Assembly (NCBI GenBank): GCA_963734595.1
Contig: CAVTHV010000018.1
Span: 248,962-312,961 of the forward strand
Source: an uncultured beta proteobacterium
GTDB lineage: Bacteria > Pseudomonadota > Gammaproteobacteria > Burkholderiales > SG8-41
Direction of reading: 5' to 3'
Length of the DNA: 64,000 bases
The notes beneath the pieces are model-generated. The model saw nothing but the letters and a program-made list of their open reading frames with translations. It had not been told where the DNA came from and did no database searches. A program made the translations under genes and the position numbers. Of this stretch, positions 3,180 to 61,961 are shown piece by piece. Positions within the stretch are counted from its first letter, which is position 1; every line of letters begins with the position of its first letter.

Positions 3180-4551
3180 ATGGCGCCGAACACTTTAAGC
3201 AAATTACGCCGCATCCGGCTGCCGGCACGGTTCACCGCGGTTTCCTGGCGCGATCTCGCGGCAACGCTGGGCCCCATACTCCTCATCAGCCTGATTGCGC
3301 TCTGGATCGCGTTCAAATTCGTCCGCCCGGCGCCGCCCGATACCATCATCCTCACCGCCGGCCCCGAGGGCAGCATTTTCAGCACCACGGCCGAGAAGTA
3401 CCGCAAGATACTCGCGCGCAACGGCGTGACGCTGAAGATCCTGCCCTCGCAGGGCTCGCTGGAAAACCTCAAGCGGCTGACCGATCCTTCGATTCGAGGT
3501 CGACGTCGGCTTCGTCCAGGGCGGCGTGTCGCAGGGGATGGACATCGATGAGCTGGCGTCGCTCGGCAGCGTCTTCTATGAACCGCTCGCCGTGTTCTAC
3601 CACAGCGCAAAGCCCGGTCGACCGGCTTTCCGTCCTGCGCGGCAAGCGGCTGGCGATCGGCAGTCGAGGGCAGCGGAACACGCGCCCTTGCTTTGATCCT
3701 GCTCAAGGCCAATGGCATGGAGCCCGGCGGCCCGACCGCGCTGCTGGATCTGGGCGGGGATGACGCGGCGCAGGCGCTGATCGCAGGCAAGGTCGATGCC
3801 GTGTTCCTGATGGGAGATTCCGCCGCGCCGCCGGTCATGCGCAAGCTCATGCGGACGCCGGGAATCCGGCTGCTCAATTTCGCGCAGGCCGATGCCTATG
3901 CGCGCCGCTTCACCTATCTGAGCAAGCTCGAACTGCCGATGGGGTCCATCGATTTCGGCAAGAATATCCCCGCGCAGAATCTCGCGCTGATCGGCCCCAC
4001 GGTCGAGCTCGTCGCGCGCGAGGATTTGCATCCGGCGCTGTCCGATCTGCTGATCGACGCCGCGCGTGAAGTGCACTCGGGCGCGACCCTGCTGCAGCGC
4101 GCGGGCGAGTTTCCGGCCCCGCTCGAGCACGAATTCCCGATCAGCAGCGACGCGAGCCGTTACTACAAATCGGGCAAGAGTTTCTTCTATCGCTATCTGC
4201 CGTTCTGGCTGGCGAGCCTGACCGACCGCATGCTGGTGATCCTGGTGCCGATCGTCGTGCTGCTGATCCCGGGATTGCGGCTGGTGCCCGTGCTCTACAG
4301 CTGGCGCGTCAGGTCGCGCATCTACCGCTGGTACGGCGCGCTGCTGGCGCTCGAACGGGACGTGCTCGCGCATCCGGAACCGGAGAAGCACGCGGACATG
4401 CTCAAGCGGCTCGATGCCATCGAGCAGGGCGTCAACAGCCTCAAGGTGCCGCTCTCGTTCGCCGACCAGTTCTACGTGCTGCGCGGGCACATCAGCTTCG
4501 TGCGCGAGCGGCTGGTGGCGCAGCCAGGATCTGAAATACCGCTTCGAATAA
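3180..4551 (+). pseudogene. TAXI-family TRAP-type solute-binding protein-like, with C-terminal membrane region, frameshifted
   Basis: MAPNTLSKLRRIRL... TM helix, then TAGPEGSIFSTTAEKYRKILARNGVTLKILPSQGSLENLKRL. The frame changes near 3495, 3612 and 3668 (VDVGFVQGGV... / PVDRLSVLRGKRLAIGSRG / SGTRALALILLKANGME). There is a probable last shift near 4525 giving ...DLKYRFE-TAA at 4549-4551. Confidence 0.7.
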
Positions 4552-4556
4552 AATAT

Positions 4557-4587
4557 AAAATCCGGCTGATGCTGACCGGATTTTTGT
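4557..4587 (+). terminator. rho-independent terminator candidate
   Basis: AAAATCCGG-ctgatgctga-CCGGATTTTT hairpin followed by a T-tract. Confidence 0.5.
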
Positions 4588-4756
4588 TGCGGCGGATAAG
4601 GGCGAATAAGCGGAGCCGCGGCCAATTTTGCCTCGACCGCTGGGTTGTGCGAATCAAAAAATCAGTCTGAGGAGATTTTTATGCCGGGCCTGAAATTTCT
4701 CGTTCGCTGTATCCATGCCGTGATCGCGCCATCGTTTCATCCGGTTTCACGTTCCA

Positions 4757-5722
4757 ATGCGGACCGCAGCGTGGCTGACGGGCCTGTTGTCGGCGGCATG
4801 CGTTTTTCAGGCGTCCGCCGCAGACGTCTATCCTCATCGCCCGGTGCGGTTGATCATTCCGTACCCGCCCGGCGGCGCCGGTGATTTCGTCGGACGGCTG
4901 CTCGGCGCCAAGCTCACCGAGGCGCTGGGCCAGCAGGTCGTCAACGACAATCGTCCGGGCGGCGGCCAGCTGATTGCCACGCAGCTCGCGGCCCAGGCGC
5001 AGCCCGACGGCTACACGCTGTTTCTCGCCAGCGCCACGCACGGCATCAATCCCGGTTTGCGGAAAAAACTGCCGTACGATTCGATCAAGGACTTTGCGCC
5101 GATCACGCTGGTGGCGAGTTCGCCGCTGATTTTCGTCGCGCATCCGTCGCTCAACGTCGGCACCATCCAGGAACTGGTGGCGCTGGCCAAGGCGCGGCCG
5201 GGGAAGATCAATTACGGTTCTTCGGGGCCGGGCACCGGCGGCCATCTGTCGGTCGAGATGCTGAAGTGGATGACGCATATCGATATGGTCCACGTGCCGT
5301 ACAAGGGCGCCGGTCCGGCGCTGACCGCTTTGGTCGCGGGGCAGGTCCAGCTGGTGTGCACCAGCCCGCTGGCCGCGCTGCCGTTCGTGCGTGACGGCCG
5401 CCTGCGCGGCCTGGCGATGACCTCGCGCACCCGTTCGCAGGCGGCGCCGGATATTCCCACGGTGGCCGAATCCGGCGTGCCGGGTTATGAATCCACGCTG
5501 TGGTATGCGCTGCTGGCGCCGGCGGGCACGCCGAAGCCGATCATCAAGCGGCTGCATGCGGAAACGGTGCGGATCATCCATTCGCCCGACGTCACCGCGA
5601 AGCTGCGGGGGCTGGGCGCCGATCCGATTGGCAGCAGTCCGGAAGAACTGTCAAAATTCCTCAAGACCGAGATCGCGCGCTGGACCGAAGTGATCCGCGC
5701 AGCGCATATCAGCGCGGATTAA
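4757..5722 (+). CDS. Bug-family (TctC-like) tripartite tricarboxylate transporter substrate-binding protein
   Basis: Signal peptide, then YPHRPVRLIIPYPPGGAGDFVGRLLG...DNRPGGGG...PDGYTL...VPYKGAGPAL, the typical Bug family signature. Confidence 0.9.
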   Translation: MRTAAWLTGLLSAACVFQASAADVYPHRPVRLIIPYPPGGAGDFVGRLLGAKLTEALGQQVVNDNRPGGGQLIATQLAAQAQPDGYTLFLASATHGINPGLRKKLPYDSIKDFAPITLVASSPLIFVAHPSLNVGTIQELVALAKARPGKINYGSSGPGTGGHLSVEMLKWMTHIDMVHVPYKGAGPALTALVAGQVQLVCTSPLAALPFVRDGRLRGLAMTSRTRSQAAPDIPTVAESGVPGYESTLWYALLAPAGTPKPIIKRLHAETVRIIHSPDVTAKLRGLGADPIGSSPEELSKFLKTEIARWTEVIRAAHISAD

Positions 5723-5743: not shown

Positions 5744-5891
5744 AAAAATGCATCGGCCACAGAAAGCACAGAAAGCATCAGAGAACACAGAGAACACAGA
5801 GAAAATGACTGATTAATATTTAAAACAATATGATATGAGACATGATTCGTTGTTTGTTTTTCCTCTGTGACCTCCGTGTTCTCTGTGGCTA
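5744..5891. repeat. palindromic intergenic element, copy 1 (CACAGAGAA-type arms)
   Basis: Left arm is AAAAATGCATCGGCCACAGAAAGCACAGAAAGCATCAGAGAACACAGAGAACACAGAGAAAA. Right arm is TTTTCCTCTGTGACCTCCGTGTTCTCTGTGGCTAT. The core is AT-rich. Confidence 0.85.
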
Positions 5892-5954
5892 TAGGATTTC
5901 GTTTTTCTGATTTTGTCCCGGACTCTGAATCAACGTACAGGCAGGGAGACAACG

Positions 5955-6497
5955 ATGAGCGCAACGGTATTGCTTTACGATCCGACGGCGGCGCGCCAGG
6001 GCGCGGCGGGGCAGGCGCAGCAGGCGCTGCAGGGCCTGCGCGGCAAGGTCGTCGGTTTCATCGACAACGCCAAACCCAATTTCGAATATCTGGTCGACGA
6101 TCTCGCCGCGCAATTTCTCGGCCGCTACGGCGTCAGCCGCGTGATCAAGCGCAAGAAGCGCGCGGCATCGGTGGCGGCGGACGATGCGGTGTACGAGGAA
6201 CTCGCGCAGCAGTGCGACCTGGTGATCACCGGGTCGGGCGATTGAGGGTCGTGCGCGTCGTGGAGTATCCACGACTCCATAGAAATCGAGAAACGCGGCC
6301 GTGCCGCGATCACGGTGTGCTCGACGGCGTTTGCCACGCTGGGCCGGGCGCAGGCGCGGGCCCTCGGCCATCCCGATCTGCCGATCGCCGTCATCGCGCA
6401 TCCGTTCGGGATCCGCACGCGTGACGAGGTGCGGCAGATTGCGGCTCAGTGTGTCGAAGAGATCGTGAAACTCGTGAGCAAGGACTCTGCGAAATGA
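5955..6497 (+). CDS. UGSC-motif (seleno)protein; in-frame TGA at 6243-6245 read as selenocysteine
   Basis: GGGAGA RBS 6 nt before the ATG at 5955. ORFs 5913..6245 and 6315..6497 are in the same frame and separated only by the TGA. The joined product reads ...CDLVITGSGD-U-GSCASWSIHDSIEIEKRGRAAITVCSTAF... (a U-x-x-C motif). A hairpin follows the TGA. Confidence 0.75.
6257..6275 (+). promoter_or_regulatory. SECIS-like stem-loop downstream of UGA 6243-6245
   Basis: Perfect 7-bp stem GTCGTGG / CCACGAC with a 5-nt loop AGTAT. The stem starts 11 nt after the UGA. Confidence 0.5.
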
Positions 6498-7559
6498 GTG
6501 ACGATACGCCGGCGGAGCGCGCTGCACTGTTCGAAGCGCCCGACGATCTGGACGCGATCAACCGGCTTTACCGCGAGCGGCGCTGGAGCGACGGCCTGCC
6601 CATCGTGCCGCCGACGCAGGAGCGCGTGGCGCGCATGCTGGGCGCGACGCGCCGCGCGCGCGACGAAGTCGTTGCCGCCGTCGCCCCCGGTTACGGCGCG
6701 GCGACGGTCGAGCGGATCGCGATCAACGCCGTGCTCGCGGGATGCGACCCCGAGTACCTGCCGCTGCTGATCGCGGCGACCGAAGCGGTGGCGGCGCCCG
6801 AATTCAATCTGCAGGGCATACAGTCGACCACCAATCCGGTCGCGGTGTGGCTCATCGTCAACGGGCCCATCGCGCAGCGCCTGAACGTGAACAGCACGTT
6901 CAATTGCCTGGGGCAGGGGGCGTGGGCCAACGCCACGCTCGGCCGCGCGCTGCGATTGATCCTGCAGAACGTCGGCGGCGCGCTGCCGGGTGAAATGGAC
7001 CGGGCCACGCAGGGCCAGCCGGGCAAGTACAGCTTCTGCTGCGCCGAGAACGAGGCCGGCAATCCGTGGGAGCCGCTGCACGTCGAACGCGGATTCGCGC
7101 GCGAATGCAGCACGGTGACGGTGGTCGGCGCCGAAGGCACGATGAACATGAATTCCCATGCCAAGGACGCCGTGGAACTCGCGCGGGTGATCGCGGAGAC
7201 CATGATTCATCCGCCGAGCAACGAATACACCCACGGCGGCGAGCCGTGGCTGGTGCTCGGGCCGGAGCACGCCGAAGTTTTCCGGATGCGCCGGCTGGAG
7301 CAAGGCGGAGGTCAAGCAGCGGTTGTGGGAGCAATCGAAAATGAAAGCGGGCCGCATGAGTGCGAGGGACCTCATGCGCGCGGTCGATTCGCGCACCGCG
7401 GAACTGGGTCCGATCGGGCCCGAGACCCTGCTGCCGATCTCGGCGCGTGCCGAAGACATCGGCATCGTGGTCGCCGGCGGGCCGGGCACGCATTCGATTT
7501 ATATCCCGAGCTTCGGCAACACGCGCGCGGTGACGCGGGAAGTCGTTGACAGGCAGTGA
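6494..7559 (+). CDS. conserved hypothetical protein translationally coupled to the UGSC gene (one frameshift near 7290)
   Basis: The ATG at 6494 overlaps the UGSC stop (ATGA). The protein-like sequence (RWSDGLPIVPPTQERV...INAVLAGCDPEYLPLL...QGIQSTTNPVAVWLIVNGP...) continues in ORF 7323..7559 (...IGIVVAGGPGTHSIYIPSFGNTRAVTREV). Confidence 0.65.
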
Positions 7560-7634
7560 TTGAGTGATTGAGTGATTAAGTGATTCTGTGATTAAGTGAA
7601 ATGTATCTTTTAGGTCCTCATCCCTCATCCCTCG
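7556..7634. repeat. palindromic-element variant, copy 2 (GTGATTGA array plus CCTCATCC array)
   Basis: AGTGATTGAGTGATTGAGTGATTAAGTGATTCTGTGATTAAGTGA starts on the TGA stop at 7557, and is followed by CCTCATCCCTCATCCCTC. Confidence 0.7.
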
Positions 7635-7743
7635 GCACTTGGCGCTCGTGCGACGACGCTAACGTAATGCGTTGTTTTAATTATTAAAAAGTGTTCGCGC
7701 GGAGCACGCGGACGTGAACCAGAAAAAGGAGAGGTATTGATTG

Positions 7744-8130
7744 ATGGATGCTGCGTGGGAGGATGCGATCAAGCGTGGTGACGTCCAGACCGTCCTTGAT
7801 CTTCTTGGACGGGGTGTGGATATCGATGCCCGCGACCGATACGGACAGACTGGCCTCATGCTGGCCGCGCATGCGGGTCATCAGGAGGTCGTAGAAACAC
7901 TAATCGCTCATCGGGCAAATCTGAACGTCACCGCCAAGTTCGGTCTGAGCGCTTTGATGCTGGCCATTGTTGCCGGGCATGCGGAAGTCGCGCTCCTTTT
8001 GGCGAAAGCAGGGGCCGATCTTTCCCTGCGGGGAACCGGTGCTCCGGGATTCGCCGACAAGACTGCCTGTGATCTTGCCGAGAACCGCGGCATGCTGGCG
8101 CTATCCGCAGCATTGAAGCCTGAACTATAA
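7744..8130 (+). CDS. ankyrin repeat protein
   Basis: Repeated G-TaLM-AA--GH--vv--Ll--gAd modules. AAGGAGAGG RBS. Local GC is lower than in the flanks. Confidence 0.85.
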   Translation: MDAAWEDAIKRGDVQTVLDLLGRGVDIDARDRYGQTGLMLAAHAGHQEVVETLIAHRANLNVTAKFGLSALMLAIVAGHAEVALLLAKAGADLSLRGTGAPGFADKTACDLAENRGMLALSAALKPEL

Positions 8131-8133
8131 GCC

Positions 8134-8751
8134 ATGAGTGGCAAGATGAAGTCAGACGCGGAGCGGTGCCAGGAATACGAGACATTCAGGAAAATCGACG
8201 CCGCGTTTCGCGCGGGTGATCTTGCCGCGCTGCAAGCCGCGGTCGATGATCCGTCCACGGTGCCGAACGGTCCAATGCCGCTGACGATCGGCCCGTGCCT
8301 CGAGTACGCCATTTATCACAGCCCGTTGCCGTTTATCCGCACGTTGCTGGAAATCGGTGCCGATCCCAATCCGGCCGATCATGCCGGATTTCCACCCCTG
8401 ATCGCGGCATTGTCCTGCAGTCGGCCGCGGCCCGGATCGCCGGGACGGCCGGACGTGCTGGAAATCCTGAAACTTCTGCTCGCCTTCAAGTCCGATCCCG
8501 ATCAACGCGGTGTCAACGACTACACGCCGCTCCACATGGCTGTGAGCGAACGCAATTCAGCGGCCGTCGGGCTCCTCCTGCAAGGCGGCGCGGATCCGCG
8601 CCTCCGGACACGAATCGACGACTGTGAAACGCCTCGGGAGATGGCGGAAAAGATGGGCCTTCGCGAGATTGCAGAGTTGCTCGTTGCCGAAGTGGACGCG
8701 ACACTACTGCCGATATCACCGTCACAAAGGGCATGTTTGAAACTAAAATAA
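8134..8751 (+). CDS. ankyrin repeat protein
   Basis: Ankyrin-like modules (YTPLHMAVSERNSAAVGLLLQGGADP...). It starts 3 nt after the previous stop. Confidence 0.8.
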   Translation: MSGKMKSDAERCQEYETFRKIDAAFRAGDLAALQAAVDDPSTVPNGPMPLTIGPCLEYAIYHSPLPFIRTLLEIGADPNPADHAGFPPLIAALSCSRPRPGSPGRPDVLEILKLLLAFKSDPDQRGVNDYTPLHMAVSERNSAAVGLLLQGGADPRLRTRIDDCETPREMAEKMGLREIAELLVAEVDATLLPISPSQRACLKLK

Positions 8752-9183
8752 TCGCGACTAAGGCGAAAAGAAAGAAGATCAAAATGCGGAGATCATCAGA
8801 GGCTACACAGACATTTCTCGGTCTTACGTTCCAAAATTTCATTTGCCCGACAACGTAAAGATTGAACAGATCACGGCGACGGGTACCCACGAACCTGACG
8901 AACCATCCGAGAACTGGTCAATACTGCGCGATCTGCACTTACAAAGGAGTCGCTGACAGAGGCGTTTCCTGAACAGCGTATCACGTAGGATCTCAAGTAA
9001 TTTATTCTTACCTTCCCGCTCTGCGGACTGACATGAGGCTCCATGAATGGTGCTAGAGAGCAACCTGACATCTGCGCTCCTCTCTTCAATATTAGCCGAG
9101 CGGTACCATCAAGAGCCAACGATGCCAGATTTGCCTGGATCGGGGAGCCAGTTAGCGCTCGAACTGCACACCATCCAATTCAA

Positions 9184-9236
9184 TTTTCCTTCGCGTTCCT
9201 TTGCGATCCTTCGCGGCCTTTGCGTTCATGCTTTTT
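9184..9236. repeat. solitary right arm of the palindromic element, copy 3
   Basis: TTTTCCTTCGCGTTCCTTTGCGATCCTTCGCGGCCTTTGCGTTCATGCTTTTT. Confidence 0.8.
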
Positions 9237-9448
9237 GGGAATGAGCGGCTTTTAAAGCCGGCGCCCGTAGATCGCAGATCGACCCGTTCCGGGCATTTCT
9301 CGTTCTCGAAAGCAGTCAATTTGAGATGCGCAATAGTCGAATCAGTATGCGCTGGTATACTTAGAGCTGCGCAGCGAACAGTTTTTTGTTGCGCCCACGG
9401 TTGAATTTTGTTTCTGCACCACAAAGTAAAAGTGAGGATTACGCTTAT

Positions 9449-9785
9449 ATGGGACGCAACCTTTATTCACAGTTCGACACAGCAGAGCTGATTCTGCGGG
9501 ACCATCTGGCCATCTGACGGTACGCTGTTGGCGAACGAACGAACGCTTATGCTGTACCTGCGGTCGGGCGTGGCTTTGTTTATCGCCGGCATTTCCATCA
9601 TCAATTTCTCGCATGAGGTGTGGTTTACCGCCATGGGATTTCTGTGCCTGCCATGCGCGATCATTACAGTGCTGTTCGGCATCGTGCGATTTCGAAAAAT
9701 GGACAAAGACATTTCGGTCGTTCGCCTGGAATTGATGAACAATTCAAAGATGGGGAACGCGGCTGCTGGACAAGAGACGCAGTAA
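9449..9785 (+). CDS. DUF202 (YidH-like) membrane protein, one frameshift near 9505
   Basis: MGRNLYSQFDTAELILRDHLA, then after a frame change ...DGTLLANERTLMLYLRSGVALFIAG plus two TM helices. Confidence 0.6.
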
Positions 9786-9889
9786 CGGCGAATTTGCTCA
9801 ATCCTGAGCCAGGCGGAACCAGCTTTCGTGCTAGCATCAAATCGGTAACATTCCATTCCAGTGGTTTCATTCATTCAGGAGGTCGCGCC

Positions 9890-10378
9890 ATGCTGAAATC
9901 CATCGTGTTACGCGCTGTCGCGGTAGTTGCAACGGTTGCAACCTGCTCGGTTGCCTTTGCGCAGGAACCGGCGTTCGAGAAGAAGAATTTCCATTACAGC
10001 GAGTGGACCAAGGGGCGCTTCGCGGAAGCCGTGACGGTCACGGGGCCGGCCAAATGGATTTACCTGGCGGGAGTCGGGGCGGAAGCGGAGGCGGACGGCA
10101 AGATTCTCCACCTCGGCGATTTCATGGGGCAGTGCCGCTACGCGTACGAAAAGATCAAGAAGGTGCTGGCGAAACAGGGTGCGACCATGGCGGACATCGT
10201 GAAGCTCACGTCCTACGTCGTCGACATTCGCGACCGCGATGCGCTGAACAAGTGCCGGGGTGAGGTTTTTGCCGGCGGGCCGATGCCCGGGCACACGTTT
10301 CTTGCCATCAGCCAGCTTGCCCGCCCCGGGATGCTGCTGGAGATGGACGTCGTCGCGGCGGTGCCGGCAGGGAAGTAG
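9890..10378 (+). CDS. RidA/YjgF family protein with signal peptide
   Basis: AGGAGG RBS and ATG at 9890. The core is YjgF-like (...IYLAGVGA...CRYAYEKIKKVLAKQGATMADIVKLTSYV...LEMDVVA). Confidence 0.85.
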   Translation: MLKSIVLRAVAVVATVATCSVAFAQEPAFEKKNFHYSEWTKGRFAEAVTVTGPAKWIYLAGVGAEAEADGKILHLGDFMGQCRYAYEKIKKVLAKQGATMADIVKLTSYVVDIRDRDALNKCRGEVFAGGPMPGHTFLAISQLARPGMLLEMDVVAAVPAGK

Positions 10379-10397
10379 CGGGTACAAAAAAGCAGGG

Positions 10398-10437
10398 CCG
10401 GGTTCACATTTCACGAACCGCCGAAAAGTGAACCCGA
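10398..10437. repeat. 40-nt hairpin repeat (GGGTTCRC-N20-GYGAACCC), copy a
   Basis: CCGGGTTCACATTTCACGAACCGCCGAAAAGTGAACCCGAT. Near-identical architecture occurs at 14175-14214. Confidence 0.6.
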
Positions 10438-10459
10438 TGCCATTGGAAAGAGGTCAGAT

Positions 10460-11638
10460 ATGTCCGCAGAAAAAGTGATCGGCTCCTGGTTCCGGTATTT
10501 CCCCGACCATTATCTCTGGTCGCAGACGATGTGTTCGCTGATGAGCCTGTCGCGCTTCGGCGGCACCAACATCCAGGAGCTGGACCAGGTCGGCAAGCGG
10601 CTGGCGGGTCACGTGGGCAACGCGGAACACTGGCACGACAGCTGGCACTGGATGGCGGACAAGACGCTGGCATACGCCGGGGCCGAGGACGCCAAAGGCC
10701 ATGCGCTGACCGCGGCCGAGGCGTACGTGCGCAGCGCGATGTACCGCTTCAACAGCGAGCGCTTCGTGCATCCGGACGACCCGCGCAAGGCCGAGAGCTA
10801 CGCGAAGCTGACCGGCGATTACCTGAAAGGCATGTCGCGGCTCATCCCGGGCATGGAGCGCGTCGAGGTGCCGTACCTCGACGGGGCGAGCCTCCCGGCT
10901 TACTGGATCCCGCCGAAGGGCGGCACGGCGAAGGGCCCGGTGGTGGTGTTCTTCGACGGACTGGACGCGTCCAAGGAAGGCACTGTGCTATGGGGCGGCA
11001 TGTCGCTCGCGGCGCGGGGCATCGGCGTGCTCTGCATCGACGGCCCGGGACAGGGCGAGGCGCTGCGCCTGCGCAAGATTCCCTCGCGTCCGGATTACGA
11101 GGTGGCGGGCACCGCGGCCTACGATTTCATCGCCGCGCGGCCGGGAGTCGACCCGTCGCGCATCGGCATCCAGGCGATGAGCTTCGGCGGCTACTATGCG
11201 CCGCGGATCGCGGCATTCGAGCACCGCTACGCGGGCTGCTTCTCCTGGGGCGCGCACTTCGACTACCACGAGATCTGGGTCAAGCGCCGCAAGGTGCTCG
11301 AGGCGGGCGGGACCATATCCTCGTCGGCGATCTGGCAACTGCCCTGGGTGCTCGGAACCCCGGACATGGACAGCGCCATGAAGAAGTGCGAGGCCTACAC
11401 CCTCGCGGGCGTCGCCGAGAAAATCCGCATGCCGATCATGATCACCCACGGCCAGGACGATAACATCGTGCCCGTGGAGATGGCCCACCGGCTGTACGCG
11501 GCCTGCGGTTCGAAAGCCAAGGCGTTGAAGATCTTCACCGTCGAGGACGGCGGCAGTCAGCACTGCGTGTTCGACAACCTGCCGATGATCTCGAACTTCA
11601 TGGCCGACTGGTGGATGGACCTGTTCGCCGGGAAGTGA
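10460..11638 (+). CDS. alpha/beta hydrolase
   Basis: 392-aa intact ORF with nucleophile elbow AMSFGG and a late HGQDD motif. Confidence 0.85.
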   Translation: MSAEKVIGSWFRYFPDHYLWSQTMCSLMSLSRFGGTNIQELDQVGKRLAGHVGNAEHWHDSWHWMADKTLAYAGAEDAKGHALTAAEAYVRSAMYRFNSERFVHPDDPRKAESYAKLTGDYLKGMSRLIPGMERVEVPYLDGASLPAYWIPPKGGTAKGPVVVFFDGLDASKEGTVLWGGMSLAARGIGVLCIDGPGQGEALRLRKIPSRPDYEVAGTAAYDFIAARPGVDPSRIGIQAMSFGGYYAPRIAAFEHRYAGCFSWGAHFDYHEIWVKRRKVLEAGGTISSSAIWQLPWVLGTPDMDSAMKKCEAYTLAGVAEKIRMPIMITHGQDDNIVPVEMAHRLYAACGSKAKALKIFTVEDGGSQHCVFDNLPMISNFMADWWMDLFAGK

Positions 11639-11653
11639 TGCGCCAGGAAAGAC

Positions 11654-12059
11654 TCAGCCCGGCTGCTTCGTGTCGAGCTGCACGCCCGCGAGGGTCTTGA
11701 GTTCCATGATTTTCTCCGCGCAGTTGCTCGCGACCGCGTTTGCGATGTTGTCGTCGAGTTTCTGGTCGGGCTCGGCGACCAAACCGTCTTTTACGATGGT
11801 GTCACCCCGGTTCCAGTCTTCGGTCTTCTTGAGCGTTTGCCAGGCTGCGACGGCGTTCGGTTGCTGTTCGAAGCGGGCCACGCAAACCGGCGTCGCATAG
11901 GCGACGACCGCATCTTGCGCCTTTTGTGTCGGACATCTTCGCCGCATTGCCGGCGCTCATCCAGCCGAATCCGAACGCCAGGGTTAGCCACACTCCTATG
12001 GCTCCAATCACGACTCCCCAGAATGCAGGTTCAATCCAACTCGTCACTTTCGTCGACAT
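11654..12059 (-). CDS. hypothetical membrane-anchored protein, one frameshift near 11935
   Basis: AAAGGAGG RBS plus ATG at 12059. MSTKVTSWIEPAFWGVVIGAIGVWLTLAFGFGW..., then continues in ORF 11654..11947 (...AQDAVVAYATPVCVARFEQQPNAVAAWQTLKK...). Confidence 0.5.
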
Positions 12060-32547: not shown

Positions 32548-35500
32548 ATGTTTAATTTTTTCATCGACCGCCCGGTCTTCTCGTACGGTCATCTCGCTGA
32601 TCATCACGCTCGCCGGCGGCGTTGCCGCAATCGGGCTGCCGATCACGCAATATCCGCAGATCGTGCCGCCGCAGGTGCAGGTGTCGACGGCGTTTCCGGG
32701 CGCCAACGCCGAATGTCGTGGCGCAATCGATCGCGGCGCCGATCGAGCAGCAGGTCAACGGCGCGCAAGAACATGATCTACATGGATTCGAAGAGCGCCA
32801 ACGACGGCACCTACAACCTGACCGTCACCTTCGATGTCGGCGCCAACCAGGACCTCGGCGGCGGTCGACGTGCAGAACCGCGTCGCGGTCGCCCAAAGCC
32901 AGCTGCCCGCCGGACGTGATCCGGCAGGGCATCACCATCCGCAAGCAGTCGACCGATTTCCTGAGCGTGCTCGCGCTCACTTCGCCCGACCGGCGGTTCG
33001 ACACGACGTTCCTCAGCAACTATGCGCTGCTCAACATCCAGGATGCGCTGGCGCGCATACCGGGAGTCGGTTTCGTGCGGATTTTCGGCGCGCGCGATTA
33101 CAGCATGCGCGATCTGGCTCGATCCCGACAAGATGGCGCGCCTGGGCGTGACGGCGGGCGATGTGCAGCGGGTGATTCAGGAGCAGAACGTCGTCGCGCC
33201 CGCGGGACGCATCGGCGTGCCACCGACGCCGAAGGGCTCGCAGATGCAGTATTCGGTCACGGTCCAGGGCCGGCTCACCAATGCGACGCAATACGAGAAC
33301 ATCGTCGTCAGCGCCGCGGGCAACGGCCAGATCGTGCGGTTGAAGGACGTGGCGCGCATCGAGCTCGGCGGCGCCGATTACTCCATCAACGTGCAGGAAA
33401 ACGGCCTGCCGGGCGTATTCATCGGCATTTTCCTGCAACCCGAAGCCAATGCGCTCGATGTCGCCAAGGGCGTAACCAAGACGATGGCGACGCTCGCGCA
33501 GCGGTTCCCGCCCGGCATGGTTTATTCGGTGCCCTACAGCACGACGCCGTTCGTCACCGAGTCGATGAAGGAGGTGGTGAAGACGCTGTTCGAAGCGGTC
33601 GTGCTGGTGCTGATCGTGGTGTTCTTGTTCCTGCAAAGCTGGCGCGCGACGCTGATCCCGATGCTGGTGGTGCCGGTGTCGCTGATCGGCACCTTCGCCG
33701 TATTTACGGCGCTTGGCTTCACGATCAACACGCTGACGCTGTTCGGGCTGGTGCTGGCCATCGGGATCGTGGTCGACGATGCGATCGTGGTGGTCGAGGC
33801 GGTGCAGCACCGGCTGGACAGCGAGCAGTTGTCGCCGCGCGATGCGACCAAAGCGGCAATGGCCGACGTCGGCGGCCCGGTCGTGGCCATCATGCTGGTG
33901 CTGTCGGCGGTATTCATTCCGGTGGCGTTCCTCGGCGGGCTGACCGGGAACCTGTATAAACAGTTCGCGCTGACGCTTGCGACGTCGGTGATGCTGTCGG
34001 CGGTGGCCGCGCTGACGCTGACCCCCGCGCTGTGCGCGCTGTTGTTGCGCCCGGCCGCGCATGAAAAGCCGCACGGCGTCGTCGGCCGGTTCTTCGACTG
34101 GTTCAATCACGTGTTCGCGTCGTTCACCAATCGCTATACGGCGTCGGTGGCGACGCTGATCCGCCATGCCGCGCTGGTGGCGCTGACTTTCGCCGTGCTG
34201 CTCGGCGCGCTCTACGGTCTGACTGGCGACCCGTCCGACCGGACTGGTGCCCGACGAGGATCAGGGCTACATGTTCGCCCTTGTGCAGTTGCCGCCCGGC
34301 GCATCGCTCGAGCGCACCAACGCGGCGGTCGCATCAATTGACCGCGATTGCCGAGGCGCAGAAAGGGCGTCGATGGCGTCGCCTCGATTTCGGGCTTCAA
34401 TCTGCTGACCGGGCTGTCGACTTCCTACAACGCGACGGCGTTCATCCGGATGAAGCCGTGGGACGAAGCGCAAGAGCCCGCGATCAAACCGCCGGCGCGA
34501 TCCTGCACGCGCTGATGGGCCGCTTCAACGGGCAGATCAAGGACGCCAACGTGCTGGTGTTCAATCCGCCGCCGATCCGCGGGCTGGGCACGGCCGGCGG
34601 TTTCGAGTTCGTCCTGCAGGATCGCGCGGGCGGCGACGTCAAGCAGTTTTCGCAGGTACTGCAGGGTTTTCTCGCCGCGGCGCGCAAGCGGCCGGAACTC
34701 GGTTTCGTGTTTGCCAACTACGATGACCGCGTGCCGCAAATCGAATACGAAGTCGATCGCGACAAGGTCAAGACCTTCGGCATCAGCTGAACGACGTGTT
34801 CTTCACGCTGCAGACGTTTCTCGGCGGCTATTACGTGAACGATTTCAACCTGTTCGGACGCACTTTCAGGGTGCAGGCGCAGGCCGAGGGCCAGGCCCGC
34901 GCGTATCCGGAGGACGTGAAGCGGTATTACGTGCGCAGCGCCAGCGGCGACATGGTGCCGCTCAGCACGGTGCTCACGGCCAAGACCATCAACGGCCCCG
35001 AGTATTTCGAGCGCTACAACATGTACCGTGCCGCCAGCATCAACGGCGCCGCGGCGCCGGGCTACAGTTCAGGCCAGGCCGCGCAGGCCATGGAGGAAAT
35101 CGCGAAGACGCTGCCTGCGGGTTATGACTATGACTGGACCGGTTCGACCTTTCAGGAGAAGAAGACCAGCGGGCAGACCGGTTATATTTTTGCGCTGTCG
35201 CTGCTGTTCGTGTTCCTGGTGCTTGCGGCGCTGTATGAAAGCTGGGCGATGCCGGTGGCCATCCTGCTGGTGATCCCGTTCGGCGCGTTCGGCGCCATCT
35301 CGGGGCTTGCGCTGCGCGAATTCGCCAACAACGTCTACGCGCAGGTCGGGCTCGTGATGCTGATCGGGCTCGCGGCGAAGAATGCGATTCTGATCGTGGA
35401 GTTCGCAAAGCTCGCCCACGAACGCGGAACATCGATCGTCGACGGCGCGTTGCAGGGTGCGCGGTTGCGGCTGCGGCCCGATCCTGATGACGTCGTTCGC

Positions 35501-35747
35501 ATTCATCCTGGGCACCCTTCCGCTCGCGATTGCAACCGGCGCCGGCGCCGGCGCCCGGCAGTCGATCGGCACGACGGTCGTGTCCGGCATGCTGTTTGCC
35601 ACCATGATCGGGATTTTCGTGATCCCCGTGTTTTATGTCGTGATCCAGCGCATCAGCGAGGGCAGGCGGCCGTTCCGGCACGACCCGTCCTCCGGCGGCC
35701 TGGGCGCGCCCGGCGTCGCCGCGGGCGCGGGGAACGAGGGGAGCTAG
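32548..35747 (+). pseudogene. efflux RND transporter permease (AcrB/HAE1-like), at least 10 frameshifts
   Basis: MFNFFIDRPVF start. Long AcrB-like blocks occur in ORFs 33022..34341, 34281..34790, 34796..35941 and 35457..35747 (e.g. ...GLVLAIGIVVDDAIVVVE..., ...[19 protein letters not shown]...). Confidence 0.85.
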
Positions 35748-35750
35748 AGC

Positions 35751-37219
35751 GTGAAGCGGAGCATTGTTATCGTCTGGATTGCGCTGCTGCTTGGCGCGTG
35801 CTCGCTCGGCCCCGACTACAAACGGCCCGACGTCAAGGTTCCGGATGCGTTTCGCGGGAGAGACGGCGCCGGCCGACAGCAAATCCCTCGCCGATCTGGC
35901 ATGGTGGGATCTCTATCGCGATCCGGTGCTGGAGAAGCTGATCAAAACCGCGTTGCGGCAGAACTACGATGTCCAGATCGCGCTGGCGCGCGTCGAGGAA
36001 TTCCGCGCGCAGGCCGGCGTCGCCGGCTTTGGCTCGATACCGCAGGTGTCGGCCGGCGGGAGCGCCACCCGCTCCCGCGTTTCGACCGTCGGGCCCGAAT
36101 CCGCTGCCGGGGAGCGCCGCGCCGGTGCGCACGACCTACGACGCCGGGATAGACGTTTCGTACGAAGTCGACTTGTGGCGGCGCATCGCCAATATCAACG
36201 AGGCGGCGAGGGCCGATCTGCTTGCCTCCGAGTTTGCGCGCGATACGGTCAGGGTTTCCGTTATCGCCAGTGTGGCCAACGCCTATTTCAATTTGCGCGC
36301 GCTCGATCAGCAGCTTTTTGTCACGCAGCGCACCGTCGCCACGCGGGAGAAATTTCTCGAGCTGACGCGCGCGCAGTTCAAGCGCGGCGTGGTGTCGGGG
36401 CTCGACGTCAATCGCGCCGAGGCCAGTCTTGCGACCGCGCGCGCTGCTGTTCCCCTTCTGAAAAGCCAGGTTGCCCAGACCGAAAACCAGCTGCAGATAT
36501 TGCTGGGAGAAAACCCCGCGCCCATCGTGCGGGAGGCCGTGTCGGATGCGCAGTATTTCCCGCTGCCGCCGGAAGTGCCCGCGGGACTGCCGGCATCGCT
36601 GCTCGAGCGGCGGCCCGATCTGCGCCAGGCGGAGAGCAATCTGCTCGGCGCGGATGCGCGCCTGAAGGCGGTCAAGGCGTCGCTGTTTCCGACCATTTCG
36701 CTGACGGGAAGCCTGGGATCGCAAAGCGCCGCGCTCTCCGACCTGTTCACCGGACCGGCGAGAATCTGGACGTTCGGCCTGGCCTTGCTGCAACCGATCA
36801 TCGACGTCAACCGCAACGTTTACCAGGTCGACATTTATACCGCGCGCGAGAAACAGGTGATGCTGCAGTACCAACAGACGGTCGCGCAGGCATTTCGCGA
36901 AGTGGCGGACGCGCTGGCTGACCGCCAGGGATTCAGCGAGTCCCTGCGCAACCAGGACGAGCAGGTCGCGGCGCTGCGCGCTGCCAACGAACGCGTGCTG
37001 AAACGTTACCGATCCGGTTACTCCTCGTATTTCGAGGTGATCGATGCCGACAGCGCCCTGTTCGCGGCGGAGCTGTTGCGCCTGCAGGTCTATCGGAACA
37101 CGTTGACCTCCCTGGTGCAGCTCTACAAGGCGCTCGGCGGTGGGTGGGAACCCCCGCCATCGACCATCGGCTCGAACGGTGGCGCCGGCGACCAGGTGGC
37201 GGGCGTCGCCCGAAAGTAA
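35751..37219 (+). pseudogene. efflux transporter outer membrane factor (NodT family lipoprotein), about 2 frameshifts
   Basis: GTG start and lipobox [13 protein letters not shown]. The rest lies in ORFs 35764.. and 35969..37219 (...LERRPDLRQAE...LFPTISLTGSLG...QLYKALGGGW). Confidence 0.8.
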
Positions 37220-58217: not shown

Positions 58218-61200
58218 TTGAAAATTGACCCCGAACAGCGCCTGCGCAATCTGCCGCAGCCGACTTACCCCGAAGACCTGCCGGTCGTCGCCCGGCGCGA
58301 GGAGATCGCGCGCGCCATCGCCGCCAACCAGGTCGTCATCGTCTGCGGCGAGACCGGCTCGGGCAAGACCACGCAGCTGCCCAAGATCTGCCTCGAGCTG
58401 AAGCGCGGCGTCGCCGGCCTGATCGGCCACACGCAGCCGCGGCGCATCGCCGCGCGCACCGTCGCCGCGCGCATCGCCCAGGAACTGAAATCCCCGCTCG
58501 GCCACGCCGTCGGCTTCAAGGTGCGCTTCGCCGACAAGCTGTCGGCCAACACCTACATCAAGCTCATGACCGACGGCATCCTGCTCGCCGAAACCCAGGG
58601 CGACCGGCTGCTGAACGCCTACGACACGCTGATCATCGACGAGGCGCACGAGCGCAGCCTCAACATCGATTTCCTGCTCGGGCTATGTGAAGCGCATCCT
58701 GCCGCAGCGTCCCGATCTCAAGCTGATCGTCACCTCGGCCACCATCGACGCCGAGCGCTTCTCGCAGCACTTCGACGACGCGCCGGTGATCGAAGTCTCG
58801 GGCCGCACTGTATCCGGTGGAGATGCGCTACCGGCCGCTCGCCGCCAGTGACGACGACGAGCAGGAACAGGACATGGAGCAGGCGATCCTCGACGCCGCG
58901 GACGAGCTCGCGCGCGAGCGCGCGGGCGGCGACATCCTGGTGTTCCTGCCCGGCGAGCGCGAGATCCGCGACACCGCCGAGCTCCTGCGCAAGCACCATC
59001 CGCCGGGCACCGAAATCCTGCCGCTCTATGCGCGGCTGTCGTTCGAGGAGCAGGAGCGCGTGTTCCAGCCCGGCGGCGCGCGCCGCATCGTGCTCGCCAC
59101 CAACGTCGCCGAAACCTCGCTCACCGTGCCCGGCATCCATTACGTGATCGACACCGGGCTCGCGCGCATGAACCGCTACAGCTACCGCAACAAGGTCGAG
59201 CAGCTGCAGGTCGAGAAAATCTCGCGCGCCTCCGCCAACCAGCGCGCCGGCCGCTGCGGGCGGGTGGCGGCGGGCGTGTGCATCCGGCTTTACGCGGAAG
59301 AGGATTACGCGGCGCGGCCCGAGTTCACCGACCCGAGATCCTGCGCTCGTCGCTGGCGGCGGTGATCCTGCGCATGAAGTCGCTGAGGATCGGCGAGATC
59401 GAGGACTTTCCGTTTCTCGAGCCGCCGACCCCGCGCATGATCGCCGACGGCTACCAGCTGCTGGCCGAGCTCGGCGCGGTCGACGAAAACAACCAGCTGA
59501 CGCCGGTCGGCTGGCAGCTCGCGAAATTCCCGATCGACCCGCGCATCGCGCGCATGATCGTCGCCGCGAAACAGGAGAACTGTCTCACCGAGGTGCTGAT
59601 CATCGCTTCCGCGCTGACGGTGCAGGACCCGCGCGAGCGGCCGTTCGAGCGCGCCGAGGCCGCCGACCGCGCGCACCAGGCTTTCCAGGACGAGCGCTCG
59701 GACTTCCTCGCCTATCTCAAGCTGTGGGCGTTCTTCGAGGAGGCGCTGAAGCACAAGAAGTCGAACCGCAAGCTCGCGGAACTGCTGCACGCGAACTTTC
59801 TGTCGCACCGGCGCATGCGCGAATGGCGCGACATCCACGGCCAGCTCGCCGCGCTACACGGGCGAGCTCGGCATGCTCGCCAACGAGACGCCGGCGAGCT
59901 TCGAGCAGATCCACCGCGCGCTGCTCGCGGGGCTGCTCGGCAACATCGGCTTCAAGAACGAGGAGGGCGAGTATCTCGGCGCGCGCGCGATCAAGTTCGC
60001 GATCTTCCCCGGCTCGGTGCTGCGCAAAGCGCAGCCCAAATGGGTGATGGCCGCCGAACTGACCGAGACCACGCGGCTCTACGCGCGCTGCGTCGCGAAA
60101 ATCGATCCGGAATGGATAGAGCCGGTGGCGCAAGCGCTGGTCAAAAAGCATTACTTCGATCCGCACTGGGAAAAGGAGCGCGCGATGGTGGTCGCGTTCG
60201 AGCGCGTCACGCTCTACGGCCTCACCATCGTCGCCAAGCGCCGCGTGCACTACGGCCCGATCGACCCGAAGGAAGCGCGCGAAATTTTCATCCGCCGCGC
60301 GCTCGCCGCCGGCGACTACCTGACGCGCTCGACGTTTTATGAACACAATCAACGGCTTATTAAAGAAGTGCAGGAACTCGAGCACAAGGCGCGGCGGCGC
60401 GACGTGCTGGTCGACGAGCAGGTGATTTTCGAGTTCTACGATGCGCTGATCCCGCCGGGCATCCACAACGGCGCGGCGTTCGAGAAATGGCGGCGCGAGG
60501 CCGAAGCGCAAGGACCCGAAGCTGCTGTACCTGACGCGCGACTACCTGATGCGGCACGCGGCCTCCGATATCACGGAAGCGCAGTTCCCGGAAACGCTCG
60601 CCGCGGCCGGCACCGAACTTGCGCTCAAGTACCGTTTCGATCCCGGCCACGCGCTCGACGGCGTGACGGCGACCGTGCCGCTGCATCTGCTGAACCAGCT
60701 CGAGGCGGCGGACTTCGACTGGCTGGTGCCGGGACTGATCCGCGACAAGGTTGCGTTCGCGTTCAAGGCGCTGCCGAAAACGATCCGCAGAAACCTGGTG
60801 CCGGTGCCGGAACAGGTGACCGGCATTCCTGACGGAATGCGAAAAGCGGGAGGCGGGAGGCGGGAGGACGGGAACCGCTTGCGGACGGCGCTCGCGCGCG
60901 TATCGTGCAGCGCGCAGTGGGTGCGCCGGTGGCGGCCGAGGTGCTGGAGGCGATCGACTACCCGCCGCATCTCAGGATGAATTTCCGCGTCGTCGACGAC
61001 GCCGGGCGCGAACTGGCGGGCGGGCGCGATCTCGCCGCGCTGAAGGCGCAGCTTGAGCCAGGCGGCGCAGCTCACGTTCGGCAAAGCCGAGCCCGGCATC
61101 GAGCGCGACAACATCCGCACCTGGGACTTCGGCGACCTGCCGCGGGAAATTGCGTTCGACCGCGGCGGCCACCGGCTGACCGGCTACCCGGCGCTGGTGG

Positions 61201-61961
61201 ACGAGGGCGACAGCGTCGCGATCCGCCTGTTCGACGTGCCGCAGACCGCCGAGGCGGCGATGCGCGCCGGCGTCACGCGCCTGATGCGCCTCATGCTCAA
61301 GGAGCAGATGAAGCAGCTCGAAAAGGGCCTGCGCGGCTTCGAGCAGGCGGCGCTGCAGCTGCGCGCCGTCGCGAACGCGGACGATTTGCGCGGGGACCTG
61401 ATCGCCGCGATCACCGACCGCGCGTTCATCGGCGAGGACGCGCTGCCGCGCACGCAGCAGGAATTCGAGGTCCAGGTGAAGCGCGCGCGCACGCGCCTGC
61501 CGGCGGTGAGCGAGGCGGCGTGCCGGCTGTTCGTCGCGATCGCCGCCGAATATCACAGCGTGTCGCTGAAGCTCGGCGGCAGCGGCGGGGCGCTCGCGCG
61601 CGTCGCGGCCGACGTGCGCGCGCAACTCGCGCGGCTCGTCTGCAAGGGCTTTATCAGCGCGACGCCGTGGGAGCAGCTCGCGCATCTGCCGCGCTATCTG
61701 AAGGCGCTGGCGCTGCGGCTCGAAAAATATGCGCGCGATCCCGCGCGCGACGCGAAGCACGCGCAAAGCATCGCCGAGCTGTGGAAGCGTTACGAGGAAA
61801 GACTGGACAAGCAGAGGAAGGCGGGCGCGGTGGATCCGCGGCTGGAGGAATTCCGCTGGCAGCTCGAAGAGCTGCGGGTGTCGCTGTTCGCGCAGGAGCT
61901 GAAGACGCCGTACCCGGTGTCCTACAAGCGGCTGGACAAGATCTGGAATGCGATGCGGTGA
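58218..61961 (+). pseudogene. hrpA: ATP-dependent RNA helicase HrpA, about 7 frameshifts
   Basis: [48 protein letters not shown] and QRAGRCGR motifs, plus the long HrpA C-terminal region, distributed over ORFs 58218.., 58817.., 59278.., 59873.., 60549.., 60905.., 61053..61961. Confidence 0.85.

Follow-up and report, generated by a model that had tools for sequence, protein, structure and literature searches.

Proteins with a U-G-S-C motif, in which U stands for selenocysteine (Sec), have been in the literature since 2007–2008 (Zhang and Gladyshev, NAR 2007, PMC1976440; PLoS Genet 2008, PMC2398784). In the Global Ocean Sampling (GOS) metagenome the UGSC family was represented by 255 Sec forms versus 21 Cys forms, and it was commoner in non-marine aquatic samples (PMC2398784). 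It is among the most abundant selenoprotein families of aquatic metagenomes and has been without a function for nearly twenty years; a 2026 review still placed it among the families with uncharacterised roles (PMC13188914). Here we describe a UGSC-family gene at positions 5955–6497 of a 64,000-nucleotide stretch, referred to as the window, of the 342-kb contig CAVTHV010000018.1 from an uncultured beta proteobacterium. An initial annotation, made from the letters of this stretch, had predicted a selenoprotein with an in-frame UGA and had pointed to a family with no assigned function, a view with which the literature we searched agrees.

The gene is very probably a genuine selenoprotein gene of this known family. 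The window protein carries the same U-G-S-C motif, its Sec pairs with Cys in the same alignment column, it scores over the full family model, and its relatives come from freshwater, groundwater and soil Burkholderiales metagenome-assembled genomes (MAGs), a habitat like that reported for the family (PMC2398784). No feature distinguishes it from other members. Among cultured organisms, Hyphomonas neptunium is cited as a carrier of the family. The gene itself is therefore not new: the family is already catalogued, and NCBI's own model would name it. What goes beyond the UGSC papers that we searched is an unnamed conserved partner gene, which forms a cassette with the UGSC gene, the adjacency of sel genes to that cassette in some relatives, and a modelled fold that does not look thioredoxin (Trx)-like. 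We also take the stretch around the UGSC Sec to resemble that of GrdB and PrdB, the B selenoproteins of glycine/sarcosine/betaine reductase and of D-proline reductase, respectively. The assembled context may help to assign a function to the family.

The UGSC reading frame and its recoding signal

The frame opened at ATG 5955 and ran to the TGA at 6495–6497, with the TGA at 6243–6245 as its sole interruption in the window sequence. All coordinates of the two same-frame open reading frames (ORFs) divided only by this triplet, and of the 180-residue read-through, were reproduced from the initial annotation. The read-through product contained the stretch ...VITGSGD-U-GSC-ASWSIHDSIEIEKRG..., and was scanned against the curated models with U entered as C. 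It matched NCBIfam NF041046, "UGSC family (seleno)protein", with 131.9 bits (equivalog cut-off 125; model positions 2–146 of 147) and Pfam PF24696 with 168.6 bits (cut-off 25; model positions 2–170 of 172). Both matches lay above the curated cut-offs and covered the full model length, which places the protein in the family and bears out the earlier mention of a family named for a UGSC or CGSC motif.

An exhaustive profile search returned 4607 UGSC-family representatives at 50% identity. The alignment set U97 against the first Cys of D-C-G-S-C in full-length Cys homologs, so the pairing of U with C that had been anticipated was found. Among 151 diverse full-length representatives, 107 had CGSC and most other variants kept Cys at the first motif position, which was more strictly kept than the second Cys. 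One genome per species was scanned, giving 451 relatives, and the best 80 of these 451, almost all uncultured Betaproteobacteria or Burkholderiales MAGs, are the genome loci used in the counts. The database search itself yielded mostly 96–99-residue proteins ending in ...ITGSGD, separate C-terminal pieces of 60–78 residues, and a few full-length proteins with GD-C-GSC. As tblastn crossed both protein halves in 80/80 genome loci, and the full-length Cys homologs were continuous, the 96–99-residue entries are gene-caller truncations, and not homologs that end at the TGA, an outcome that had been named in advance as one that would speak against recoding. Nearly all public gene calls cut the UGSC gene in two at this triplet.

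TGA stood at the U column in all 80 genome loci and also in second copies and further metagenome contigs. The exact string TGA-N11-GTCGTGGAGTRTCCACGAC was found in 90 of the 96 fetched loci, in addition to the window; of the six others, three are of Cys form, two are E. coli probe loci and one ends at the TGA. The predicted perfect 7-bp stem with an AGUAU loop, beginning 11 nt past the UGA (spacer 6246–6256), was recovered as GTCGTGG (6257–6263) paired with CCACGAC (6269–6275) around AGTAT, and would extend to 8 bp if the A:U of the loop closes. ViennaRNA placed this hairpin in both the minimum free energy and the centroid structures, with −11.1 kcal/mol for the hairpin alone.

In the bSECISearch model, as summarised in the 2026 review (PMC13188914, Fig. 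2), a bacterial Sec insertion sequence (SECIS) has a stem of 4–16 bp, a loop of 3–9 nt, a G in the first two loop positions, and 16–37 nt between the UGA and the loop. On these points of geometry and loop, the window hairpin agreed in every respect, with a 7-bp stem, a 5-nt loop and 18 nt from the UGA to the loop. AGUAU fits the loop consensus N1-G-[G/U]-N-N2, and the element lies in the coding sequence just 3′ of the UGA, as in other bacterial SECIS elements. The initial placement of the apical loop in the usual range, with a G near its start, is consistent with the published model.

As the stem sits inside the codons for [A/T]-S-W-S-[I/V]-H-D, the synonymous sites are the informative ones. 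Over the 80 genomes, the seven codons from +12 to +32, [AT]CG TCG TGG AGT [AG]TC CAC GAC, had zero synonymous entropy, whereas flanking codons mostly had 0.9–1.8 bits and the Ser two codons upstream used all four TCN codons. The one departure, GCA...GAT in L064, is compensatory and replaces a G-C pair by A-U. Within the element, bases varied only at the fourth loop position (42 A, 38 G), which is free in the SECIS model. A divergent Sec form with 41–46% protein identity kept the identical 21 nt. Two Cys-form genes served as the negative control; they coded T-S-W-V-V-H-D and I-T-W-G-V-H-D with other codons and had no hairpin. Judged from these alignments, the hairpin is under selection at the RNA level and invariant across the lineage. 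It differs from the consensus bacterial element in this unusual sequence invariance, hence in showing almost no covariation.

Some individual copies deserve mention. In L075 (6001–6537) and in one of the two tandem copies of L064 (6001–6513), the motif was U-G-A-C, with the same TGA and hairpin. Two cassettes occurred in some genomes: L001 and L075 belong to the same MAG, and L072 and L073 to a second. In P0247 (L086, 134–166), the JGI gene call read the Sec TGA as Trp (GLGD-W-GSC), where the DNA had TGA and the identical SECIS; this contig is 917 nt long, and no partner gene was evident in its short downstream sequence. P0028 (133 residues; NCBI/ENA) was UGSC-like and lacked the Sec region, its ...ELAGKCHAVIAHPFGIRT... 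joining the N-terminal half to the C-terminal HP-x-G part, and the deletion could be real or an artefact. We also observed cassettes 60–70% identical to the betaproteobacterial ones on contigs labelled Streptomyces/Streptomycetaceae, Dehalococcoidia/SAR202, Chitinophaga pinensis, Vicinamibacterales and Bordetella parapertussis (the oddly labelled contigs include L006, L015, L021, L022, L024, L016, L017, L043, L044 and L031). These labels likely reflect binning contamination or taxonomic mislabelling of MAGs.

Partner gene, uptake receptor and Sec-decoding genes

The features of the locus are collected in Table 1. In the region upstream of the UGSC gene, two sigma-70-like sites were present versus 0.5 expected.

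Table 1. Coordinates of the UGSC gene, its signals and its adjoining genes in the window.
Feature	Position	Strand	Remarks
TctC/Bug-family solute receptor (tripartite tricarboxylate transporter family)	4757..5722	+	PF03401, 241 bits; directly upstream of the cassette
Weak sigma-70-like promoter match (consensus only)	5805..5834	+	ATGACT-18-TATGAT, 9/12 positions, AT-rich spacer
Shine-Dalgarno-like AGGGAG	5943..5948	+	6 nt 5′ of the ATG; direct sequence reading
UGSC-family selenoprotein gene (very probable)	5955..6497	+	180 codons + stop, Sec at codon 97
In-frame TGA read as Sec (U97)	6243..6245	+	U-G-S-C motif encoded at 6243–6254
SECIS hairpin	6257..6275	+	7-bp stem, loop A-G-U-A-U, within codons for (A)-S-W-S-I-H-D
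Unnamed partner gene, ~351 residues	6494..7559	+	ATG overlaps UGSC stop (ATGA); frameshifted in the window

Nothing in Pfam or NCBIfam matched the partner, with E-values up to 10 allowed, and it has at least 7993 database relatives, all unnamed. It lay directly downstream of the UGSC gene in 79/80 loci; the sequence of the last one stops too soon to show whether it is there. Identity to the window copy ranged over 67–85% for the partner and 58–72% for UGSC across loci. In the reciprocal check, a split UGSC gene was found upstream in all independently sampled partner loci, and a Cys-form UGSC gene, 35% identical, was also followed by a partner with 33% identity. Through the ATGA overlap, the partner is translationally coupled to UGSC. 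Moreover, the two were joined in one reading frame in L041 (6001-), L064 (about 7700-) and L080 (6001-), with the TGA and SECIS retained, and fusions of 505–574 residues made up 20 of 148 family representatives (e.g. P0368–P0370, P0398, P0399, P0401, P0436, P0439 and P0445). The 2008 paper noted a fusion of UGSC to an 'Unknown_1' domain (PMC2398784), which is probably the partner. Five residues, C84, C138, C182, H259 and H333, were invariant in 40 partner sequences, including distant and fused ones. With an obligate partner and its natural fusions identified, the question of function becomes more testable.

An exception to this pairing was seen in L081 (1497–2931), where the gene following the Cys form P0002 codes for a DUF6282 (PF19799) protein with an HxH start and not for the usual partner; the UGSC family thus pairs with more than one kind of neighbour.

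Of the 70 loci with enough sequence 5′ of the cassette, 43 had a same-strand TctC homolog immediately upstream, and 54/80 loci had one either upstream or directly after the partner, which links the UGSC-partner pair to TctC-type solute uptake. The remaining neighbours of the cassette varied among loci. In the window, two ankyrin-repeat protein genes (7741–8751) follow the cassette, in the place that selC or a second TctC gene occupies in some relatives, and a 325-residue ORF with coding-like composition and no Pfam or NCBIfam match lies upstream of TctC (3693–4667).

In 11/80 loci, the cassette was immediately followed, on the opposite strand, by a gene that ARAGORN identified as tRNA-Sec (anticodon UCA); Rfam RF01852, applied to four of these loci, confirmed it with 76–77 bits (cut-off 47). 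Next came a gene for a 298-residue Pyr_redox_2 protein, thioredoxin-reductase (TrxR)-like, and then selB and selA, as far as the contigs reach. The loci with this island are L010, L021, L022, L023, L026, L027, L030, L042, L045, L047 and L071; in L027 it spans 7592–12036 on the minus strand, convergent with the UGSC-partner cassette. Since just three other tRNA genes were found across all loci scanned, the linkage of selC with the cassette is not a matter of chance. In one clade, then, the cassette has genes for Sec decoding and a TrxR-like gene as neighbours, whereas 69/80 relatives are without adjacent sel genes, as is the window.

Elsewhere in the window, an AcrB-type RND pump gene (32965–35941) and a HrpA-like helicase gene (58633–61961) were each split over several frames, the pieces of the latter matching Helicase_C, OB_NTP_bind and only the first 115 of the 582 positions of DUF3418; this fits an indel-rich assembly. 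A second candidate for recoding, the same-frame ORFs 34727–35941 and 35942–37219 parted by TGA, was rejected as the C-terminus of AcrB followed by a NodT-type outer-membrane factor. Several suspected frameshift pairs in the window likewise turned out to be separate neighbouring genes.

Alternative readings of the in-frame TGA

Several observations weigh against the selenoprotein reading and what we build on it. No selA, selB, selC or selD was detected within the 64-kb window using E. coli SelA, SelB and SelD as queries, and the window held no tRNA gene at all; since it covers 64 kb of a 342-kb contig, this says little about the genome. The E. coli SelD query found no relative in any fetched locus. 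The hairpin taken by itself is statistically unremarkable (61-nt fold, z = −1.04), and 1.7% of all window positions precede a hairpin that passes the SECIS model. Rfam gave no match in the window at gathering thresholds, SECIS families included, and a permissive scan of 6225–6320 returned noise. There was a single compensatory substitution, so that the support comes from invariance and not from covariation; it is the conservation across loci that raises the hairpin far above chance. The partner carries a +1 frameshift in the window, due to one extra base within 7283–7292, and decay of the operon is conceivable. What we say about structure derives from modelling a homolog in place of the window protein itself. 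As for function, the link to GrdB and PrdB is only suggestive, no relative of known function was detected for the partner, and the role that we propose for the pair is an inference.

An assembly with frameshifts, in which the partner is broken and the AcrB-like and HrpA-like genes are fragmented, invites the explanation that the TGA arose by error in sequencing or assembly, or else recently as a nonsense mutation, the gene being of Cys type (TGC/TGT) or a pseudogene. All 80 independent genome loci, the extra copies and the further metagenome contigs have TGA at this codon, public gene calls are split at the same point, and the hairpin follows the TGA in every Sec-type copy and is absent from the Cys forms, which makes this explanation barely tenable. 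It is highly improbable, too, that the TGA is a true stop, with a 96-residue N-terminal polypeptide and a separate C-terminal one that starts at GTG 6315, the two assembling as a split protein. Such a GTG is present and nearly all public records are annotated in this way, but the starts of the called C-terminal fragments differ between records (60–78 residues), and the 23 codons from the TGA to 6315 (GSCASWSIHDSIEIEKRGRAAIT) vary at synonymous sites outside the hairpin while their protein sequence is conserved, and they run without a break in the Cys homologs. Under a split, the second Cys of the motif would fall in an untranslated stretch, and both the SECIS-type hairpin and the adjacent Sec machinery would be left unexplained. 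The hairpin itself might be a by-product of the conserved peptide S-W-S-I/V-H-D and codon bias, carrying no RNA signal; the stem does lie wholly inside that peptide, and neither the lone compensatory change nor the single-sequence fold statistics speak otherwise. We consider this very unlikely in view of six consecutive degenerate codons with zero synonymous variation in 80 genomes, next to flanking Ser, Gly, Asp, Val, Glu, Ala and Lys codons that use 2–4 synonymous codons each. Cys-form genes code a near-identical peptide with other codons and have lost the stem, whereas the Sec form at 41–46% protein identity has not changed in these 21 nt.

A different possibility grants that the family consists of true selenoproteins and holds that the window copy is a relic, in a decaying operon or in a genome without Sec decoding. 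It draws on the frameshifted partner and on the lack of Sec machinery in the 64 kb, and we regard it as improbable, if less so than the explanations above. The partner follows its 97%-identical relatives up to ...GPEHAEVF and then continues in the +1 frame (GWSKAEVKQRLWEQSKMK...) to 7559; the extra base lies in cggatgcgcc, where these relatives have three codons (KRA or SRA), so that from about residue 264 onwards the C-terminus of the called 351-residue ORF (P0121) is nonsense. Because other long genes of the window are fragmented as well, an assembly indel is likelier than operon decay. The UGSC frame, TGA, SECIS, Shine-Dalgarno sequence and ATGA coupling show no damage, the N-terminal half shares 94% identity with that of P0001, the closest relative, and the absence of adjacent sel genes is the usual state among the relatives. 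A genuine selenoprotein gene remains our preferred reading of 5955–6497.

Structure models, proposed mechanism and comparison with known systems

Structure was approached through an AlphaFold2 model of the natural Cys homolog P0002, 43% identical to the window protein (pLDDT 90, pTM 0.84). The model shows an alpha/beta sandwich of five parallel strands alternating with helices, in which Cys98, the equivalent of U97, occupies the N-cap position of helix 3, immediately behind strand 3, with Cys101 in the first turn. Foldseek returned generic flavodoxin-like matches (lumazine synthase, flavodiiron flavodoxin domains; TM about 0.45, E about 1e-4) and no thioredoxin among the top 50. The predicted fold is thus flavodoxin-like rather than thioredoxin-like, and the Trx-like fold proposed for the family in 2008 (PMC2398784) is not supported by the P0002 model. 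For the partner (pLDDT 78, pTM 0.80), Foldseek gave no significant match in the Protein Data Bank (PDB; best E = 0.04, TM 0.26). Class I fumarate hydratase, MmgE/PrpD and CyuA were considered as relatives of the partner and dropped, their Foldseek matches being too poor to use. Sequence searches of the PDB returned nothing for UGSC or the partner.

In terms of mechanism, we envisage that, with the ribosome at the UGA, SelB-GTP carrying Sec-tRNA(Sec) would bind the apical loop (A-G-U-R-U), by the established bacterial mechanism, and that Sec would be inserted to give a 180-residue cytoplasmic protein. The geometry of the motif in the homolog model suggests that U97 and C100 form a selenol/thiol redox or nucleophile centre, which may cycle between the selenol/thiol and selenenylsulfide states. 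By analogy with the GrdB/PrdB reductases, UGSC and its partner could be the two subunits of an enzyme whose substrate is imported and of carboxylate type, with the partner binding the substrate, Sec as the attacking or reducing residue, and a thioredoxin-reductase-type system re-reducing the U-x-x-C centre. We put this forward tentatively, as somewhat less probable than its contrary. Bolder, and in our estimate rather doubtful, is the full picture of an undescribed selenoenzyme of aerobic freshwater and soil Burkholderiales, built from a stand-alone UGSC protein distantly related to the catalytic Sec domain of GrdB/PrdB, its partner (separate or fused), a TctC-delivered carboxylate and TrxR-like recycling. 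If it were true, selC, selB and selA would travel with the cassette in one clade as if kept mainly for one protein, and the three invariant Cys and two invariant His of the partner would serve the binding of a carboxylate-type substrate.

The thioredoxin-fold selenoproteins with UxxC or CxxU motifs (Trx-, Prx-, DsbA- and SelW-like) share with UGSC a U-x-x-C at the N-terminus of a helix that follows a beta-strand, and presumably also the selenenylsulfide chemistry. They differ in topology: in the thioredoxin fold the CxxC motif comes after strand 1, whereas in the P0002 model it comes after strand 3 of five parallel strands, which would set the UGSC protein apart from that fold.

GrdB and PrdB offer the more concrete biochemical analogy, that of their reductive chemistry. 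Shared with them are a beta-strand, U-x-x-C at the start of a helix, E at +15 and G at +18 from U, the next strand, and [HY]-P-x-G. We compared profiles in three separately built versions, using PrdB/GrdB-like GOS reads. In all three, hhalign aligned 66–69 columns and set U-x-x-C on U-x-x-C, with E-values of 3.9e-4, 0.02 and 1.2e-4 at weak probabilities of 36%, 2% and 54%, respectively; each score was above those of all 60 column-shuffled nulls. The Pfam model GRDB (PF07355) gave no match to UGSC even at E ≤ 10. In the PrdB-like GOS reads, the match to this model, which reaches position 345 of 347, stops shortly before the Sec residue, so the model does not extend into the Sec region and could not detect the likeness; it leaves the Sec-bearing C-terminal domain of PrdB-like proteins uncovered. 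A PDB search with an approximate GrdB fragment gave no GrdB or PrdB entry. The alignments are suggestive of a distant relationship between UGSC and the Sec domain of GrdB/PrdB, rather than of membership in that family, and we hold kinship and its absence to be about equally plausible.

The differences from these systems are plain. GrdB and PrdB are larger proteins with a different N-terminal region, whereas UGSC has 180 residues, and their hosts are amino-acid-fermenting anaerobes, whereas the hosts here are Burkholderiales MAGs. GrdB and PrdB work with a second subunit, the pyruvoyl-forming GrdE or PrdA; UGSC has a putative partner subunit, known here from the genes. Finally, genes for thioredoxin reductase are part of grd operons, just as a TrxR-like gene adjoins the UGSC cassette in 11 loci.

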